In this document: positions 28,448 to 51,648 of the stretch, piece by piece
How the letters are laid out: each line of letters starts with the position of its first letter
Position numbering within the stretch: the stretch's first letter is position 1
NCBI GenBank assembly: GCA_017447775.1
Contig: JAFSMU010000009.1
Span: 4,531-68,530 of the forward strand
Length of the DNA: 64,000 nucleotides
Reading direction: 5' to 3'
Source of the DNA: Clostridia bacterium
Lineage (GTDB): Bacteria > Bacillota > Clostridia > Oscillospirales > CAG-272
Program-made: the position numbers and the translations under genes
The notes under the pieces: model-generated
Database searches by the model: none
What the model was told of the DNA's origin: nothing
What the model saw: only the letters and a program-made list of their open reading frames with translations

Positions 28448-28475
28448 AAAAAAACCGCCATTGGCGGTTTTTTTA
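28448..28475. terminator. Bidirectional terminator
   Basis: AAAAAAACCGCC-ATTG-GCGGTTTTTTT, between convergent operons. Confidence 0.85.
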
Positions 28476-30761
28476 TTTTAGTTTCTTTTCGTTTGAAAGG
28501 AATCCTATGTAGTCCGTAAGAGCAAGCGGCTTTGAGTAGTAATACCCTTGCACGACCTGGCACCCGAGCTTTCGGAGAAGATCGACTTGTTCCTGAGTTT
28601 CAACGCCCTCCTGAGTTACCTTCATGTGAAGGTCGCGCGCAAGGGATATAATGCTTGAAAGTATCTTCATGTCGCGATCGTGCGAATAGCCGTCCTTGAT
28701 AAAGAATCGGTCAAGCTTGATCTCGTCCATCGGCAATTCCTTCAATATATTATATGACGAAAAACCGGAGCCGAAGTCGTCGATCGAGCATTTGAACCCG
28801 TTTTTGTGAAGCTCATTTACGATGCTGCGAAGCATATCGTAGTCTTCATACGCAAAGCTCTCCGTAAACTCTATCGTGATAAATCCGTCGGCTATGTTGT
28901 ACTGATGTTTCATATCCGTATAGAACTTTACAAAATCCTTTTCCGACGCCGTAATACGCGACGCATTGACAGAAATAGGATAAAGCGGAAGCCCGTTAAT
29001 AACGGCGTCCTGAATATACAGGCACGTCTGCTCGAAAACGTAATGGTCGAGCTTTATAATGAAGCGGTTCGCCTCAAATAGCGGAAGGAACACATCAGGC
29101 TGCATATACTCGTCGCGGCTCGGATTATACCAGCGCACAAGCGCCTCGCAACCGTCTGGACGGTCCTCCGCGATGTTGTATTTTGCTTGGTAGAATACCT
29201 TGAAATCGTGATTTTGAAGCGCGCTTTCCATGTGCGTTTCGATATAATCGTTTTGGATATTGCTTGCATAAAGCGTTTCGTTGTATATTCTGAACGATCC
29301 GAAGTCGCACGGGAATTTCGTTGCGTTTTCCGCGTTTATCGCAAGGTCGATCATCTTTGTTACCGTATCCGCAATTTTACGGTCGGTGGTGTAGATACCG
29401 CCTTGAAGCACGAGCGAAAAGCTGTCGGTAAACTGCGAGCTGTGCTGTGTTGCAAGCGCGACGACGGGAAGAAGTCTGTCCGCAAGGTCGCCGACCTGAC
29501 GGTAATGGAGAAGCAACGCAAATCTGCCGTTTTCAATATAACCGAGCGATTCGTCAAGACCGAGAATGCCGTTGTAAAGAACTTTTAAGTGGCGCACGAT
29601 GTTCAGCATCGTTTCCGTGCCGATCTGCTCTAAAATATAGTCGTAGTGGTTTATGTCGATAACAACGATGGCAAACGACGTCGCCTTGTTTCTCGAAATT
29701 ATTTCGATAGCCACGCGCTCGAATTTCGACCTTGAATAGCACCCGACGGCTTTGTTTACGTCGTTCATCGTCGAAAGAAGTTTTCTGTTGTTGCGTCTTT
29801 CAATGATTCCGTAAATGCCGAGCGCAAGCGCAAGAGCGAAGAATACGAAGAACTCACCGAGGATGACTCTCATCACGTCGTAGCCCGTTTTGTAGATCTC
29901 CTCAGCCATGTAGTAGCCGACAGCCGAGAATATCGCATTGCCGTTTTCTCTCACTCCGCAAACGGAGATAATGCACTTGTCGCCGGCAACGTCAACGGTG
30001 TATTTTTCCGACGTTCCCGCCTCAACGTTTACGCGGAAGCCGTCGAGGATGTTTTTGTCGTTAATCTCATTTCTGAGGATCTCATAGATGTTTCCGTGCT
30101 GCTGTACGTCAACGTTTTCGTCGCGGTAAAGAACCCTTACGATCTCTCCCTGCGCGGCGCAGAAAGCGACGAAGCGCGAGTTTTCGTAATTTTCCGTCGT
30201 GTATGACGCCGAATACGTAACGACACTTGTCACGGGATAACACACCACAAGCATATCGGCGTAGTCAAATCCGTCGATCGGCACGCAGAACGCAACGGTG
30301 CTCAAATTATACTGTCTGTCCGCAATAACGCCGGCGCACGAAAGAGTGCGAAGTTCAGCAGTTTTTTTGACGGCGGGCGCTTCCATTTCGGATTCAAAAA
30401 CCTGCCCCGACACGTCATATTCTTTGTCGTTGTTGAAAAATCTGACGAACATCACATCTCCGAACCGTTCATCCTTTGACAGTCGGTGAAGGCGCGTTGC
30501 AAAGTCGATATCGCTTTCATATTCCATACCGGCGACGGTGTCGGCAAGGCTTTTTGCCTTCATTTTGAACGCGTCGATACTGCTTTTAAGGTTATTTGCC
30601 GCGCCCTCGACAAAGCTAAGCGCAACCTCGCCCGATTCGCGTTCTATCGTTCCCGAATAGTTTGAAAGCATAGCAAAACTGCTGCCTATCATAAGTACGC
30701 AGACAAGACACATTATTATAAGAAAATACCCGCGGGACTTTCCCGAAGATTTCTTTTTCAT
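28473..30761 (-). CDS. Membrane sensor with degenerate GGDEF and intact EAL domain (c-di-GMP phosphodiesterase)
   Basis: Two TM segments flank a roughly 270-aa extracytoplasmic domain. The GGDEF position reads ENGRF. EAL motifs are intact: CEALVRW, IEFTES, SIDDFGSGFSS, KLDRFFI, EGVETQEQ, QGYYYSKP. Confidence 0.85.
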   Translation of the reverse strand: MKKKSSGKSRGYFLIIMCLVCVLMIGSSFAMLSNYSGTIERESGEVALSFVEGAANNLKSSIDAFKMKAKSLADTVAGMEYESDIDFATRLHRLSKDERFGDVMFVRFFNNDKEYDVSGQVFESEMEAPAVKKTAELRTLSCAGVIADRQYNLSTVAFCVPIDGFDYADMLVVCYPVTSVVTYSASYTTENYENSRFVAFCAAQGEIVRVLYRDENVDVQQHGNIYEILRNEINDKNILDGFRVNVEAGTSEKYTVDVAGDKCIISVCGVRENGNAIFSAVGYYMAEEIYKTGYDVMRVILGEFFVFFALALALGIYGIIERRNNRKLLSTMNDVNKAVGCYSRSKFERVAIEIISRNKATSFAIVVIDINHYDYILEQIGTETMLNIVRHLKVLYNGILGLDESLGYIENGRFALLLHYRQVGDLADRLLPVVALATQHSSQFTDSFSLVLQGGIYTTDRKIADTVTKMIDLAINAENATKFPCDFGSFRIYNETLYASNIQNDYIETHMESALQNHDFKVFYQAKYNIAEDRPDGCEALVRWYNPSRDEYMQPDVFLPLFEANRFIIKLDHYVFEQTCLYIQDAVINGLPLYPISVNASRITASEKDFVKFYTDMKHQYNIADGFITIEFTESFAYEDYDMLRSIVNELHKNGFKCSIDDFGSGFSSYNILKELPMDEIKLDRFFIKDGYSHDRDMKILSSIISLARDLHMKVTQEGVETQEQVDLLRKLGCQVVQGYYYSKPLALTDYIGFLSNEKKLK

Positions 30762-30786
30762 GCTTTGCCCCTTTTAAGCCGATATT

Positions 30787-31023
30787 TTATTTTTTGCCCT
30801 CAAGCTCCTCAAGCTGCTGAACAAGACGGTGAAGATTTGCTCTTTCTTCTTCTATCTGGGCGGTAAACTGGTTGAAGAAGTCAACGTCCCTGTCGTCAGG
30901 CTCGGTATGGCGAAGGATCGCCTCGACGAGAGCCGCCTGGGATCTTGTGCGCTTCTGTTCGATTTCAGCGATACGTTCTTTGCTCTGATTTATCGCTTTT
31001 TTAAGTTTCATTTTTTCAAACAT
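30787..31023 (-). CDS. 78-aa coiled-coil protein (hypothetical)
   Basis: Heptad-rich, charged sequence. Lies 17 nt after the upstream gene and 25 nt before the phosphodiesterase gene. Confidence 0.6.
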   Translation of the reverse strand: MFEKMKLKKAINQSKERIAEIEQKRTRSQAALVEAILRHTEPDDRDVDFFNQFTAQIEEERANLHRLVQQLEELEGKK

Positions 31024-50711: not shown

Positions 50712-51577
50712 CAGAATTCGTCCTCCTCTTCTGATTGAAGGAGCGCTTCGTCAAGCGGCATACGGAGCCTGCCGTGTTGCACCTCGCCGGAATACGATAC
50801 GGAGGGGATATAGCCATAGCAGTCCGCCCTTGAAAGTGTTTTTATCTGCTCGTCGTTCTTTACGCCCTCGGCGATGATCTCGCACCCGAGCCCGCGCAGA
50901 AATGCGAGGAATGATTCCATGGCGTTGCGCTTTGAGCGGTCTATCGTCAGCGGCGCCATCCACGGCGCAAGCATGACAAAATCAAACGGGAGGTTGAACA
51001 GCGGCGTTATGGGCGAGTCATTCTCTCCGACGCCGGTGATGAGCGTTTTGACTTTCAGCAGCTTCATACTGAGGACCGCCATGCGCGCCTTTTCCGCGTC
51101 TTCAAAGAAGATGGAGCGCGGAAATTCAAGGCAGAGCTTTTCGGGAGTGGCGAATTCGTTTTCGTCGAGCAGCGCCTTGACGTAGCCGTAAAGGTCAACC
51201 TCGTGAACGAGCCGCGGCGACACGCGCGCGGTGACAAATTCGACGTTTCTGCCCGCCTCGTCAAACTTTTTGACGGCTTTGATAGCCTCGCCGACGTTCC
51301 ATTTCGACATCCGCACGCCGCGGTCGGTTTCGTCCGCCGCGTATGAGTAACGCTCGGGCGGGATAACGCCCTCGATGATGCTGTTGATGAACGTGGCCCC
51401 GCGATATGCGCGCGGCGCCTTTTTGTAGCAGCCGTTTATCTGCGAAAAGCGCATTTCCAGCGGCAACACGCACGACTGGATGGTCATTTCAAGGTAGTTC
51501 GGCTTTTTGGGCGCGTCAGCTTCCGTTTCCTCGGCAGAAAGGGGCATTTCTTCGGGCAAAAGTTCGCTCTTATCCAA
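50711..51577 (-). CDS. Stand-alone degenerate EAL-like domain protein (catalytically dead; possible c-di-GMP receptor)
   Basis: TTG start 5 nt after a run of seven G. EAL-fold landmarks are present but mutated: YRGATF for EALxRW, LCLEFPRS, ITGVGEND for DDFGTG, AEGVKNDEQ for AEGVETxEQ, and no QG. Confidence 0.55.
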   Translation of the reverse strand: MDKSELLPEEMPLSAEETEADAPKKPNYLEMTIQSCVLPLEMRFSQINGCYKKAPRAYRGATFINSIIEGVIPPERYSYAADETDRGVRMSKWNVGEAIKAVKKFDEAGRNVEFVTARVSPRLVHEVDLYGYVKALLDENEFATPEKLCLEFPRSIFFEDAEKARMAVLSMKLLKVKTLITGVGENDSPITPLFNLPFDFVMLAPWMAPLTIDRSKRNAMESFLAFLRGLGCEIIAEGVKNDEQIKTLSRADCYGYIPSVSYSGEVQHGRLRMPLDEALLQSEEEDEF

Positions 51578-51619
51578 ATCTGTCCCCCCCTTTGTCGAAA
51601 TATATATTTACAATTTGAA

Positions 51620-51648
51620 ATTGTACCACAAATTGCCCGTTCTGTCAA
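51620..51648 (-). promoter_or_regulatory. Consensus promoter TTGACA-17-(TGg)TACAAT for the first unit of the fibre cluster
   Basis: On the minus strand: -35 at 51643-51648, 17-nt spacer ending in TGG (extended -10), -10 TACAAT at 51620-51625. Confidence 0.6.

Follow-up and report, generated by a model that had tools for sequence, protein, structure and literature searches.

A conserved clostridial gene cluster of the CoCoPALM class that combines SipW-type signal peptidases, a membrane-tethered McrB-like GTPase and candidate fibre subunits

The window analysed here, a 64,000-nucleotide stretch of DNA from a Clostridia bacterium, contains a cluster of 13 open reading frames (g01 to g13), all co-oriented on the minus strand, with three promoter-like sites of the same orientation that each score 11/12. 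The first site (51620..51648; TTGACA-17-TACAAT with a TG) lies upstream of g01 (50711-51577, 288 aa), a soluble degenerate or 'dead' EAL protein; g02 (49944-50711, 255 aa), a membrane-anchored paralogue of the major subunit; and g03 (49057-49878, 273 aa), the candidate major fibre subunit. The scanner placed an intrinsic terminator with a 12-bp stem and a T-run 3' of g03 (48870..48897, minus strand). The second site (48755..48783; TTTACA-17-TATAAT) lies upstream of the minor subunit candidates g04 (47717-48700, 327 aa) and g05 (46940-47695, 251 aa), a third accessory secreted protein, g06 (45904-46911, 335 aa), and a giant secreted protein, g07 (35708-45883; 3391 aa from a TTG start, 3383 aa from the ATG at 45859). 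On the same strand, 3' of g07, is a terminator-like hairpin (about 35623..35675; 13-bp stem, 11-nt loop, then a T-run), which was read by eye, its loop being too long for the scanner. The third site (35582..35610; TTTACA-17-TATAAT) lies upstream of g08 (34702-35487, 261 aa), an ER/archaeal-type signal peptidase I that we call SipW-a; g09 (33038-34624, 528 aa), a membrane-tethered McrB-like GTPase; g10 (31714-33033, 439 aa), its McrC-like partner; g11 (31041-31733, 230 aa), the second signal peptidase, SipW-b; g12 (30787-31023, 78 aa), a soluble helical protein of coiled-coil type with no segment on the transmembrane map; and g13 (28473-30761, 762 aa), a two-transmembrane sensor with an EAL phosphodiesterase domain. 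A bidirectional terminator called by the scanner closes the cluster (28448..28474). An earlier note, made from the letters alone, had described these 13 genes, three near-consensus promoters and terminators for the three units, and we found each of them in place.

The centre of the cluster resembles McrBC. The N-terminus of g09 is hydrophobic; a transmembrane segment, then a short coiled coil and a linker lead on to an AAA+ domain. The transmembrane map gives a single strong segment followed by the coiled coil. The AAA+ domain carries the motifs GISGTGKT and LDEMN and an N-N-D-D signature, and McrB was the only match in a PDB profile search (E 3e-6), in agreement with the membrane-anchored McrB-like GTPase first proposed. 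The N-H-D-E found in homologues of g09 assigns the family to the NxD clade. The family alignment shows extreme conservation across the AAA+ domain, and the Walker A, Walker B and sensor motifs share in it. The domain also matches the PADLOC candidate PDC-M26A (1.6e-34), and the nearest relatives lacking the transmembrane segment are plasmid-borne CoCoNuT-like AAA+/DUF2357 pairs, in which the match is limited to the GTPase domain. The partner, g10, matches Pfam DUF2357 at 36.6 bits (cut-off 23.3 bits), with a core at about residues 55-345. The window copy ends in an acidic tail; in relatives its place is taken by a long coiled coil, or the protein is fused to SipW-b. Domain search, alignment and model all failed to detect a nuclease domain in g10, as expected of the nuclease-less McrC-like partner in the original description. 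The AF2 model was mediocre (pLDDT 62.7) and a Foldseek search with it, which matched no McrC structure, was uninformative; the likeness to McrC therefore rests on one Pfam hit and on gene context.

Two signal peptidases bracket this pair. Both match TIGR02228, the archaeal/SipW-type signal peptidase I model (g08, 2.4e-22; g11, 1.7e-22), and g08 also matches the SipW model NF046067 (4e-32). Each has N- and C-terminal transmembrane segments and an E/K/R-rich tail on the transmembrane map, so the two SipW copies with cytoplasmic tails are as originally described. The g08 family conserves SM.P, NTHRI and GDN..D motifs as well as a motif in the cytoplasmic tail. The cytoplasmic tail of g11 is E/R-rich, and the window copy has GI where its family has the GD box. 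The first 20 nt of the g11 ORF are shared with the 3' end of g10.

The candidate subunits share an N-terminal design. In g03, a signal-anchor is followed by a predicted SipW-type cleavage site (TYA↓WF, the arrow marking the cut), a conserved N-terminal extension, putatively the donor strand, and then the β-jelly-roll domain. Residues A27, W28 and F29 are nearly invariant in the g03 family, which comprises at least 553 clusters, every one annotated 'hypothetical'. With a GC content of 0.42, the lowest in the cluster, g03 fits the AT-rich major subunit that had been predicted. The earlier note had assigned SipW-type N-termini to five proteins. This held for g03, g04 and g05, which alone have in common a conserved N-terminus of the form ...[ST]x[AGS]-W-F...; g05 reads TYS↓WF, and its family never varies at W41 and F42. 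By hhalign, g03 and g04 align over 41 N-terminal columns that span the signal-anchor and the post-cleavage segment (probability 95.6%, E 1e-8), and g03 and g05 align more weakly over the N-terminus (probability 73%). A shared segment of this kind resembles the donor-strand similarity between TasA and TapA (PMC9674648). The assignment was looser for g06. Its N-terminal anchor carries SYA↓EY, the N-terminus is of a YA(A/S/E)Y form, an FSSNY motif is conserved, and profile comparison detected no homology to g03; in relatives the order g04-g05-g06 is always kept. The assignment did not hold for g02, which has the look of an anchor that stays uncleaved: its cytoplasmic tail (LRRTAxEVKRYR) is conserved, a single transmembrane segment follows, and the extracellular part is a domain like that of the subunits, with an (SEN)n repeat at the C-terminus encoded by a 9-bp tandem repeat (49953-49996). 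The g02 and g03 families align across their C-terminal halves (hhalign probability 81%, E 1.3e-5). None of the N-termini of g02 to g06 matched the NCBIfam SipW-cognate signal models.

A TasA-like or pilin-like fold was only weakly supported. The AF2 model of g03 is a β-jelly-roll (pLDDT 87.8) whose best Foldseek matches were the archaeal bundling pilin AbpA (7ueg, E 0.018) and the TasA fibre (8aur, E 0.046), both weak, with TM-scores of 0.30 or less. Sequence and profile searches with the subunit candidates gave no match to TasA or camelysin. The giant g07 was a case apart. It had been labelled a GLUG protein, a name with no HMM match behind it: Pfam, GLUG included, returned nothing even at E≤10, and a PDB sequence search was likewise without a match. 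The protein contains 16 GG[ILVA]xG motifs. Its signal peptide (AHA↓EE) is of the ordinary Sec type, and the N-terminus lacks a donor-strand-type segment. Homologues in relatives sit after g04-g06 or before g08, and we regard g07 as a candidate tip or cargo adhesin.

The proposed wiring to c-di-GMP proved stronger than first seen. As had been claimed, g01 is a degenerate EAL protein (Pfam EAL, 6e-20) whose family has lost the EAL, N, ExxE, DDFG and K motifs; it is a candidate c-di-GMP receptor. Also as claimed, g13 is an EAL protein (2.7e-56) with intact catalytic motifs. Beyond the cluster lie two GGDEF genes, a diguanylate cyclase on the plus strand, divergent from g01 (51793..53196; Pfam GGDEF 4e-37), and a second GGDEF protein on the minus strand (53267..54694; 1.2e-26). 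Upstream of the second is a c-di-GMP-I riboswitch aptamer on the same strand (54951..55025; Rfam RF01051, 50.1 bits, gathering score 35). A GGDEF neighbour occurs in 11 of 60 long loci, a looser association. No riboswitch was found ahead of g01 in the window's own cluster. Of 63 c-di-GMP-I aptamers in relatives, 58 are situated no more than 450 nt upstream of a gene of the system, and 46 related loci have system genes preceded by riboswitches. Control of this kind is typical of genes for adhesion and motility.

We then surveyed synteny in 132 related loci, drawn from over 100 species-level genomes (GTPase identity 43-84%). The order SipW-a, transmembrane McrB-like GTPase, DUF2357 protein, SipW-b was almost invariant, which bears out the co-occurrence of such GTPases with sipW across Clostridia. 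SipW-a lies immediately 5' of the g09 homologue in 105 of 111 loci, and homologues of g10 and g11 are present in 100/100 and 79/88 loci, respectively. The median gap between these two is -2.5 nt, and in 87% of 90 loci it does not exceed 30 nt. In ten genomes of the Ruminococcus flavefaciens group, including isolates MC2020 and Y1, the two are a single polypeptide with the architecture DUF2357-coiled-coil-TM-SipW. Usual companions of the core are the dead-EAL protein (g01, 62/81), the membrane-anchored paralogue (g02, 68/81; median gap to g01 3 nt in 71 loci), the major subunit and the EAL phosphodiesterase (g13, 49/79, missing from the R. flavefaciens-type clade). The position of g12 after g11 is kept in at least 50 of 88 loci. 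The g03-g07 set is kept whole in R. flavefaciens-type loci, though moved downstream of g12; among 53 loci with long flanks, 11 showed the g04-g07 module, whereas the core and g03 are far commoner. The full-length GTPase was not found in plasmid or viral collections.

What the sequences show, then, is the gene content of the cluster and its conservation, the coupling and in places fusion of its genes, the topology of the proteins and the association with riboswitches. The synteny, the translational coupling of g10 and g11, the ten natural fusions and the lack of full-length plasmid or viral copies support reading the cluster as one integrated system, as the earlier note had it, rather than as an adhesin locus that took in a defence cassette. 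An Anaeroplasmataceae relative (L058) retains the GTPase, the McrC-like protein, an EAL protein and tandem riboswitches. Its module adjoins two surface proteins of about 1068 aa, and SipW and subunit genes were not found within 10 kb; the module can thus serve something besides SipW cleavage.

The claim of novelty was overstated. Bell et al. (eLife 2024, PMC11090510) had named the association of an McrB GTPase bearing an FtsB-like transmembrane segment and coiled coil with McrC and a signal peptidase CoCoPALM, for "pilus assembly linked to McrBC", proposing the link to pilus assembly in one paragraph and deferring its analysis. We found no follow-up to that paragraph in the literature. The cluster is a member of this named yet uncharacterised class. 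There is also a precedent for SipW/TasA-like matrix proteins whose export needs an NTPase machine: in C. perfringens, matrix proteins encoded in the SipW operon depend on a T4P machine for export, and oligomers are membrane-anchored (PMC11580942).

On balance, we think it probable that the cluster encodes a chromosomal, vertically conserved, c-di-GMP-regulated fibre, processed by SipW and assembled by donor strands, whose maturation is gated or powered by the McrBC-derived GTPase. The major subunit g03 and minor subunits g04 and g05 would be exported as membrane-anchored precursors and cut by SipW-a and SipW-b after the small residue just before the conserved W-F. Cleavage would release the conserved N-terminal segment as a donor strand that polymerises the jelly-roll subunits, as in TasA and AbpA fibres. 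The uncleaved g02, with its conserved cytoplasmic tail, could form the membrane base; g06 and g07, the latter without a donor strand of its own, may be accessory proteins or supply the tip or the cargo. Inside the cell, a membrane-tethered, presumably hexameric GTPase ring would bind g10 as adaptor, whose effector would be SipW-b instead of a nuclease. The coupling of g10 to SipW-b, by gene overlap and in R. flavefaciens by fusion through a coiled coil and transmembrane helix, suggests that GTP binding or hydrolysis gates or powers subunit cleavage and hand-over. Input from c-di-GMP would arrive through riboswitches in relatives, through g01, which may bind the nucleotide, and through g13; we infer the direction of control.

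The same fibre may be built with the GTPase module as a regulator or scaffold instead of an energy source, with cleaved subunits polymerising spontaneously. The module could then be a checkpoint that responds to c-di-GMP, determine localisation, or work as a switch by way of the SipW tails. The C-terminal tail of B. subtilis SipW has a signalling role. To our knowledge, AbpA fibres assemble without an NTPase. TasA fibres, too, form by donor-strand exchange with no NTPase (PMC9674648), so the GTPase may be regulatory, not mechanical. The abundance of c-di-GMP components and riboswitches and the coupling of g01 to the anchor g02 fit this, as does the nature of McrB GTPases, which are slow switches stimulated by their partner (established McrBC knowledge, summarised in PMC11090510). 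The extreme conservation of the AAA+ domain and the covalent fusion of adaptor to peptidase point instead to a mechanical or allosteric machine. A gate and a motor look alike in sequence data. We consider this alternative distinctly less likely than the reading above. We find it improbable that a short SipW-processed fibre acts as a GTPase-driven pseudopilus, forcing large folded cargo, the 3383-aa g07 for example, across the thick peptidoglycan in the manner of type II secretion and of BsaC, whose export in C. perfringens depends on T4P. That precedent, with its membrane-anchored oligomers (PMC11580942), the giant secreted proteins adjacent in the window and several relatives, and the subunit-free L058 module beside its surface proteins speak for a piston, and three minor subunits with a giant protein would parallel minor pilins and PilY1; against it, g04-g07 are far rarer than the core with g03, and the low GC of g03 suggests an abundant structural subunit. 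A CoCoNuT-type anti-phage system, in which the McrBC-like module senses invasion and the peptidases and surface proteins are effectors or receptor-masking devices, is highly improbable: despite the PDC-M26A match, the closeness to plasmid-borne CoCoNuT-like pairs and the grouping of the clade with 'CoCoNuT-like systems' by Bell et al. (PMC11090510), we found no nuclease or other toxic effector and no DNA- or RNA-binding domain (the N-terminus of g09 is a membrane anchor), and the system is strictly chromosomal, keeps its synteny, is under strong purifying selection across families, has no full-length form in phage or plasmid collections and shows riboswitch control of the adhesion type.

A GTPase-gated or GTPase-powered fibre therefore remains the reading we prefer. 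McrBC is a DNA-restriction enzyme; here no nuclease is seen in the McrC-like partner, and a signal peptidase would take the effector's place, in a system kept in hundreds of gut and rumen Clostridia.

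Thirteen co-oriented minus-strand open reading frames, called here g01 to g13 in transcription order, are present at positions 28473–51648 exactly as the earlier note had listed them, and hydropathy across the cluster proteins bore out the topology it had proposed. The first gene, g01 (50711–51577, minus strand), encodes a soluble protein with an EAL domain (6e-20 in a family search). The last, g13 (28473–30761, minus strand), encodes a protein with two transmembrane segments and a complete EAL domain (3e-56). Two genes, g08 (34702–35487, minus strand) and g11 (31041–31733, minus strand), encode SipW signal peptidases of the archaeal/ER type (TIGR02228, about 2e-22 each; NF046067 was also matched), which we call SipW-a and SipW-b. 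Each has a transmembrane segment near either terminus and a cytoplasmic tail rich in E, K and R. Between them lie g09 (33038–34624, minus strand), a GTPase gene whose only solved-structure match is McrB and which also matches the PADLOC candidate PDC-M26A (1.6e-34), and g10 (31714–33033, minus strand), which carries DUF2357, the domain at the N-terminus of McrC (36.6 bits; the cut-off is 23.3). The products of g10 and of g12, a 78-aa protein, are soluble, and those of g02 to g06 each have one N-terminal hydrophobic segment.

Three sigma-70-like sites (score 11/12) were found ahead of g01, g04 and g08, and terminators after g03, g07 and g13, as the note had predicted for three transcription units. 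The terminator after g07 is a 13-bp hairpin and T-run read by eye; the one after g13 is bidirectional. No further copy of the system was found within the window. Convergent with the cluster, and with a common bidirectional terminator, are two tandem genes for 483-aa paralogues (25534–26985 and 26982–28433, plus strand), whose matches, to the C-terminal domain of L-fucose isomerase, are all weak (E about 3e-4 to 5e-4).

We compared the cluster with 132 loci around GTPase homologues from species-representative genomes, in which the GTPase was 43% to 84% identical. They derive from Clostridia of the rumen and gut (Oscillospiraceae, the Ruminococcus flavefaciens group, Lachnospiraceae and Christensenellales-like MAGs), with a few bins of Bacilli or Mollicutes. 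A scan by alignment, with one genome for each species, confirmed at least 578 GTPase-encoding stretches, and the database holds at least 8000 protein clusters at 90% identity. Counting only loci with enough flank, a SipW gene lay immediately 5′ of the GTPase in 105 of 111, a DUF2357 gene lay 3′ of it in 100 of 100, and a second SipW gene followed the DUF2357 gene in 79 of 88. The 78-aa protein came thereafter in at least 50 of 88 loci and the EAL phosphodiesterase further downstream in 49 of 79. Upstream, 81 loci could be scored: g01 was present in 62, g02 in 68 and g03 in 55. A neighbourhood survey of this kind had been proposed in the earlier note, and its answer is that the membrane-anchored McrB-like GTPase and sipW do co-occur, on both sides of the GTPase-McrC pair.

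The commonest gene order was g01-g02-g03-g08-g09-g10-g11-(g12)-g13, with g03 adjoining g08; the window therefore deviates from it by the insertion of g04-g05-g06-g07 between these two genes. R. flavefaciens-type loci place g03-g04-g05-g06(-g07) downstream of g12 instead, and the full gene set thus outlasts rearrangement. Two gene pairs are tightly packed: g10 and g11 overlap or abut (median gap −2.5 nt; 30 nt or less in 87% of 90 loci), and g01 and g02 are separated by a median of 3 nt. One rumen MAG (JAGAAE01) carries two separate g01-g02-g03-g08-g09-g10 copies, so within-genome duplication of the system is possible (loci L009 and L013).

The reading of these genes as one integrated system had been made to depend on the GTPase-partner pair not being a mobile defence cassette found in unrelated contexts. 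Among 72,556 plasmids we found no full-length GTPase: all matches were below 60% identity and none spanned 80% or more of the query, and the best plasmid matches listed were at most 40% identical, over the GTPase domain alone. Viral contigs contained essentially no such full-length GTPase, with one remote match at 26%. We therefore conclude that the module is integrated; together with the near-universal SipW synteny, the missing full-length homologue on these plasmids leads us to reject the mobile cassette. One locus cautions against linking the GTPase solely to SipW. In an Anaeroplasmataceae MAG (L058, 2610–16900), tandem c-di-GMP-I aptamers are followed by two genes for ~1068-aa Cys-rich/LRR-like surface proteins of lipoprotein type, a 195-aa transmembrane protein, the membrane-anchored GTPase (43% identity), a coiled-coil McrC-like protein of 786 aa and a sensor-EAL protein; within 10 kb there are neither SipW nor subunit genes.

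The most telling coupling is that of the McrC-like protein to the second peptidase. In ten R. flavefaciens-group genomes, including the cultured strains MC2020 and Y1, g10 and g11 form a single ORF of 973–1015 aa (L098, L104, L106, L110, L112, L114, L124 at 11709–14681, L126 at 11593–14544, L130 and L132). It encodes the DUF2357 core, a long coiled coil, a transmembrane helix, the SipW peptidase domain, another transmembrane helix and a charged tail. As a Rosetta-stone fusion it argues strongly that SipW-b and the McrC-like protein function as a single unit, and it settles the topology, with the adaptor intracellular and the peptidase outside. The conserved core of g10 extends to about residue 345 and is followed by a variable tail, which in most relatives is a long E/K/R coiled coil of up to about 400 aa and in the window is acidic, of low complexity and not a coiled coil. 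No nuclease domain in g10 was matched in Pfam. Its AF2 model (pLDDT 62.7) had no Foldseek match better than E 0.15, leaving the fold search uninformative, and its profile retrieved coiled-coil noise only from the PDB. Fold-level proof that g10 is an McrC or carries a nuclease fold was not obtained from the model or the profile; the low-confidence part of the model may hide an inactivated nuclease fold. Both SipW paralogue families keep the SM.P, NTHR and GDxN..D boxes, and so have the Ser, His and Asp boxes of an ER/archaeal-type peptidase at family level. The window copy of g11 has GI in place of the family's GD in the GDxN box, with the Ser and His boxes intact. The cytoplasmic tail of SipW-a is conserved in sequence.

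The GTPase itself retrieved McrB alone from the PDB, at E 1.5e-3 with the single sequence and 3e-6 with the family profile. It has the motifs GISGTGKT (Walker A) and LDEMN (Walker B) and an NNDD signature, whose residues N368, N369, D370 and D371 are invariant among 12 diverse homologues. The close family members P0362 and P0376 have N-H-D-E at this place, so that only an NxD reading of N-N-D-D fits. One strong transmembrane segment (about residues 47–86) precedes basic residues and a short coiled coil, and the heptad-like NEDMLEEIADLHRDVIRLTAEKERI comes after the segment. Against Pfam, the N-terminus gave no FtsB/DivIC match even at E ≤ 10. Other members of the GTPase family (P0369, P0371, P0381, P0387 and P0397) have N-termini of three further kinds: a signal peptide with a large extracellular domain and a transmembrane segment that immediately adjoins the GTPase, multiple transmembrane segments, or long soluble coiled coils like those of CoCoNuT systems.

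These features place the cluster in a class that already has a name. In one paragraph, Bell et al. (eLife 2024; PMC11090510) named CoCoPALM systems, for pilus assembly linked to McrBC, and deferred their analysis to "a separate, forthcoming publication". There the GTPase is described as having an FtsB-like transmembrane and coiled-coil N-terminus and associated genes of the signal peptidase family, as belonging to the NxD clade, in which E or a second D usually comes next, and as having a McrC homologue to which coiled coils are "usually" fused too (PMC11090510). By that description CoCoPALM shares with the window an NxD-type McrB GTPase fused to an N-terminal transmembrane and coiled-coil segment, a DUF2357 McrC homologue as partner and flanking genes of the signal peptidase family, and with the window's relatives the coiled coils on most McrC homologues; the class is abundant in Bacillota. 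The N-N-D-D signature falls in the NxD clade, and two TIGR02228/SipW genes bracket the GTPase-McrC pair. The window's McrC-like protein differs in ending in an acidic tail rather than a coiled coil, which, given the paper's "usually", is not disqualifying. The window cluster is thus a member of the CoCoPALM class, a class named but without characterisation.

It follows that the novelty claimed in the earlier note was overstated: the bare association of GTPase and signal peptidase was named in 2024, and priority for it is unavailable. The anatomy of the system appears to be new. Within the text of Bell et al. that treats CoCoPALM, no subunit genes, anchored paralogue, module of minor subunits and giant protein, or McrC::SipW fusion is described, nor is any wiring by dead-EAL protein, EAL phosphodiesterase and riboswitch; two text supplements of that paper do not mention CoCoPALM, signal peptidase, FtsB or pilus (PMC11090510). 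A literature follow-up on CoCoPALM, SipW with McrB, and DUF2357 with signal peptidase found nothing beyond the 2024 paper and its preprint, and one on SipW with McrB and TasA neighbourhoods found nothing relevant.

The module resembles McrBC and CoCoNuT systems in its AAA+ GTPase with McrB signature and in the DUF2357 partner gene immediately 3′. It differs in that the GTPase is membrane-tethered and lacks a nucleic-acid-binding N-domain, in that no PD-(D/E)xK, HEPN or other nuclease was detected in the module, and in that a signal peptidase would fill the effector position of McrC. The nearest soluble relatives of g09 are in CoCoNuT-like pairs; its best plasmid relatives are soluble AAA+ proteins of ~800 aa with a DUF2357 protein encoded after each, in a CoCoNuT-like four-gene layout. 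Among the matches listed, the nearest non-membrane relatives of the GTPase domain (38–40% identity) are on Deinococcus p96k (L134) and a Rhodoferax plasmid (L135), in the order AAA-domain protein of more than 1000 aa, hypothetical protein, ~800-aa AAA ATPase and DUF2357 protein, a module that looks CoCoNuT-like.

What the system would build is indicated by its secreted proteins. The candidate major subunit, g03, belongs to a family of at least 553 clusters at 90% identity, every one unannotated. Its alignment-based AlphaFold model (pLDDT 87.8, pTM 0.80) has an N-terminal helix, the signal-anchor, then unstructured residues 24–49 and an all-β domain. Searched against the PDB with Foldseek, the model first matched AbpA, the bundling pilin of archaea (7ueg, E 0.018, prob 0.72), and, third, the TasA fibre (8aur, E 0.046, prob 0.38). 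These are its best, weak, structural neighbours, and point specifically but weakly to the TasA superfamily. The TasA-like fold suggested earlier is weakly supported: the all-β model is confident, and these top matches had E > 0.01 and TM-scores of at most 0.30, with no PDB match under E 1e-3. The g03 profile found no match in the PDB. Likewise, the N-termini that had been called SipW-type gave no match to an NCBIfam SipW-cognate signal (TIGR04088-type) in g02–g06 or in 47 members of the g03 family, and no relation was found at sequence level between g03 and TasA, camelysin or the SipW-cognate signal. The cleavage region of TasA is T-W-A↓A-F, and T-Y-A↓W-F of g03 resembles it by eye only.

The subunits share an N-terminus among themselves. 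Profile-profile comparison showed that the minor subunit candidate g04 has only its N-terminal 41 columns in common with g03 (prob 95.6%), namely the signal-anchor and a conserved segment past the predicted cleavage site. The second such candidate, g05, shares 36 N-terminal columns, mostly the signal-anchor through the W-F motif (prob 73%), and the accessory secreted protein g06 showed no similarity to g03. The common motif, ...[ST]-x-[AGS]↓W-F-[ST]-x-N..V...G-M.V, satisfies the −3/−1 rule. By analogy, the predicted cut would parallel that of TasA, right ahead of the donor strand, and N-terminal donor-strand similarity is common to TasA and TapA (PMC9674648). The membrane-anchored paralogue g02 is homologous to the g03 domain over its C-terminal half (prob 81%, E 1.3e-5), with the shared motifs YxxxFYxKxxG, RV and (W/Y)(L/F)EG(E/N)DxxC. 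It has no predicted cleavage motif of the subunits and a conserved cytoplasmic LRRTAxEVKRYR motif, and we read it as a putative uncleaved membrane base. A perfect 9-bp tandem repeat of 4.9 copies (49953–49996) encodes its (SEN)n C-terminus, the length of which could vary through slippage. The antisense ORF at 49866–50738, with its GIFGIFGIF run, mirrors this repeat and is probably not a gene.

The giant protein g07 (3383 aa) has an ordinary Sec signal peptide, without a donor-strand N-terminus, and would fit as a tip or cargo protein. It has 16 GG[ILVA]xG motifs and no Pfam match at E ≤ 10, so that the GLUG label it had been given is motif resemblance only. No known adhesin domain was found in it by Pfam at that threshold or by PDB sequence match. 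BLASTP revealed no repeats within it, and hhalign did not relate its C-terminus to any of the subunit families.

SipW/TasA-type operons (B. subtilis tapA-sipW-tasA, C. perfringens sipW-bsaA/B/C), grouped here with archaeal bundling pili (AbpA), likewise have a dedicated ER/archaeal-type SipW peptidase, and their TasA/TapA-type subunits are secreted jelly-rolls and have an N-terminal segment common to major and accessory proteins (PMC9674648), as here, where the jelly-roll is a modelled one. The window system differs from them in lacking sequence-level homology to TasA or camelysin, in having two SipW paralogues with long cytoplasmic tails, and in adding the GTPase/McrC module and the membrane-anchored subunit paralogue; c-di-GMP replaces control of the SinR type. 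Efficient secretion of the TasA-like proteins of C. perfringens sipW-bsaA/B/C requires type IV pilus genes, and their oligomers are membrane-anchored (PMC11580942); this precedent already casts doubt on the statement that no TasA-like fibre ever uses an NTPase machine.

The proposed c-di-GMP wiring is largely borne out by the EAL domains of g01 and g13 and by riboswitches in relatives' loci. Aligned with the intact EAL domain of g13, members of the g01 family no longer have the Glu of EAL, the Asn, the second ExxE Glu, the Asp pair of DDFG or the Lys. These catalytic residues are absent family-wide, and the label of dead EAL is therefore correct; g01 is possibly a c-di-GMP receptor of the degenerate-EAL FimX/LapD type. 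With Rfam, c-di-GMP-I aptamers were found just 5′ of g01 in four of six relatives, and a covariance model built from the aptamers of those relatives found 63 in 46 loci. All but one of these (62/63) lie on the system strand, and 58 of the 63 lie at most 450 nt 5′ of a system gene: g01 in 42 cases, often in tandem, g03 in 6, g04 in 5, g08 in 4 and g02 in 1 (examples are L005, 6038–6125; L013, 4924–5141, tandem; L028, 4695–4793). An upstream aptamer was present in 36 of 67 g01-bearing loci. The loci without one are almost all of the R. flavefaciens-type clade, which is also without g13, and in most other loci an aptamer directly precedes a g01, g03, g04 or g08 homologue.

In the window cluster no riboswitch was found at E ≤ 0.5, including ahead of g01. 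The sole aptamer (54951–55025, minus strand, 50.1 bits) precedes a neighbouring GGDEF gene (53267–54694, minus strand); another GGDEF gene (51793–53196, plus strand) is transcribed divergently from g01. These elements may jointly make up a feedback loop on the synthesis of c-di-GMP beside the cluster. GGDEF genes were neighbours in just 11 of 60 long loci, so we rate the association as loose and do not count them as core components.

Taken together, we observe a cytoplasmic McrB-type GTPase anchored to the membrane, an McrC-like partner that is coupled, or fused, to a signal peptidase outside the cytoplasm, a membrane-anchored paralogue coupled to a dead-EAL protein, and c-di-GMP riboswitches before the operon in relatives. 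Very probably, this is an integrated surface-fibre system of the CoCoPALM class under c-di-GMP control. Canonical McrC carries its nuclease as a C-terminal effector. By analogy with McrBC, g09 would form a GTP-dependent ring that is plugged and stimulated by g10, and SipW-b would occupy the effector position in place of the nuclease; GTP turnover would therefore gate or drive the cleavage of membrane-anchored precursors. Cleavage would free donor strands, which would polymerise upon the g02 base. Expression would be governed by c-di-GMP through the riboswitches, activity possibly through g01, and g13 would degrade the signal. That the GTPase gates or powers the peptidase step is plausible, at somewhat under an even chance; as a whole, a CoCoPALM fibre system with a GTPase-coupled peptidase is the explanation we moderately favour.

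A GTPase acting purely as a regulator would go with the same genes, the c-di-GMP inputs included, and we consider it rather unlikely. A pseudopilus-like device for secreting the giant cargo we regard as improbable. A defence system, against which the undetected nuclease and DNA-binding N-domain speak, is very improbable.

The likeness of the cluster to type IV pili and type II secretion is one of functional analogy only. The logic in common would comprise a major subunit alongside several minor ones that resemble it just at the N-terminus, a large protein as tip or cargo, a peptidase of their own, a hexameric NTPase in the cytoplasm and an input from c-di-GMP. In type IV pili this input runs via FimX and riboswitch-controlled pilA1. 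The cluster has no component homologous to those systems. Its peptidase would cut on the outer side of the cell membrane, its subunits are modelled as β-jelly-rolls and not α-helical pilins, and its NTPase is of the McrB and not the PilB type.

As an NTPase-coupled filament machine of a new kind, the cluster remains a strong candidate. The further proposal, that it represents a hitherto uncharacterised class of NTPase-driven Gram-positive surface-filament machine in which an McrBC GTPase has exchanged its nuclease effector for a signal peptidase, is tentative and on present evidence doubtful. In such a machine, GTP hydrolysis in the membrane-tethered ring would be relayed by the McrC-like adaptor, coiled coil and transmembrane helix; the relay would cut anchored precursors and pass donor strands into the growing TasA-like fibre, with c-di-GMP as the go signal. 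The natural McrC::signal-peptidase fusion offers a concrete and testable mechanism, with a peptidase and not a nuclease as effector, and the system makes NTPase control of TasA-superfamily fibre assembly directly testable. Among the carriers are cultured strains (Ruminococcus flavefaciens MC2020 and Y1, Ruminococcus sp. FC2018 and Eubacterium ruminantium FB3002), with which the idea can be tested.

If true, this proposal would give type IV pilus assembly a functional counterpart made of wholly unrelated parts, and it would upset the view that TasA-superfamily fibres always assemble without energy input. The system is also the clearest case known to us of an McrBC module exapted to a non-defence function in the envelope. 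Its carriers are fibre-degrading Clostridia of the rumen and gut, for which adhesion to plant particles and to one another is central.
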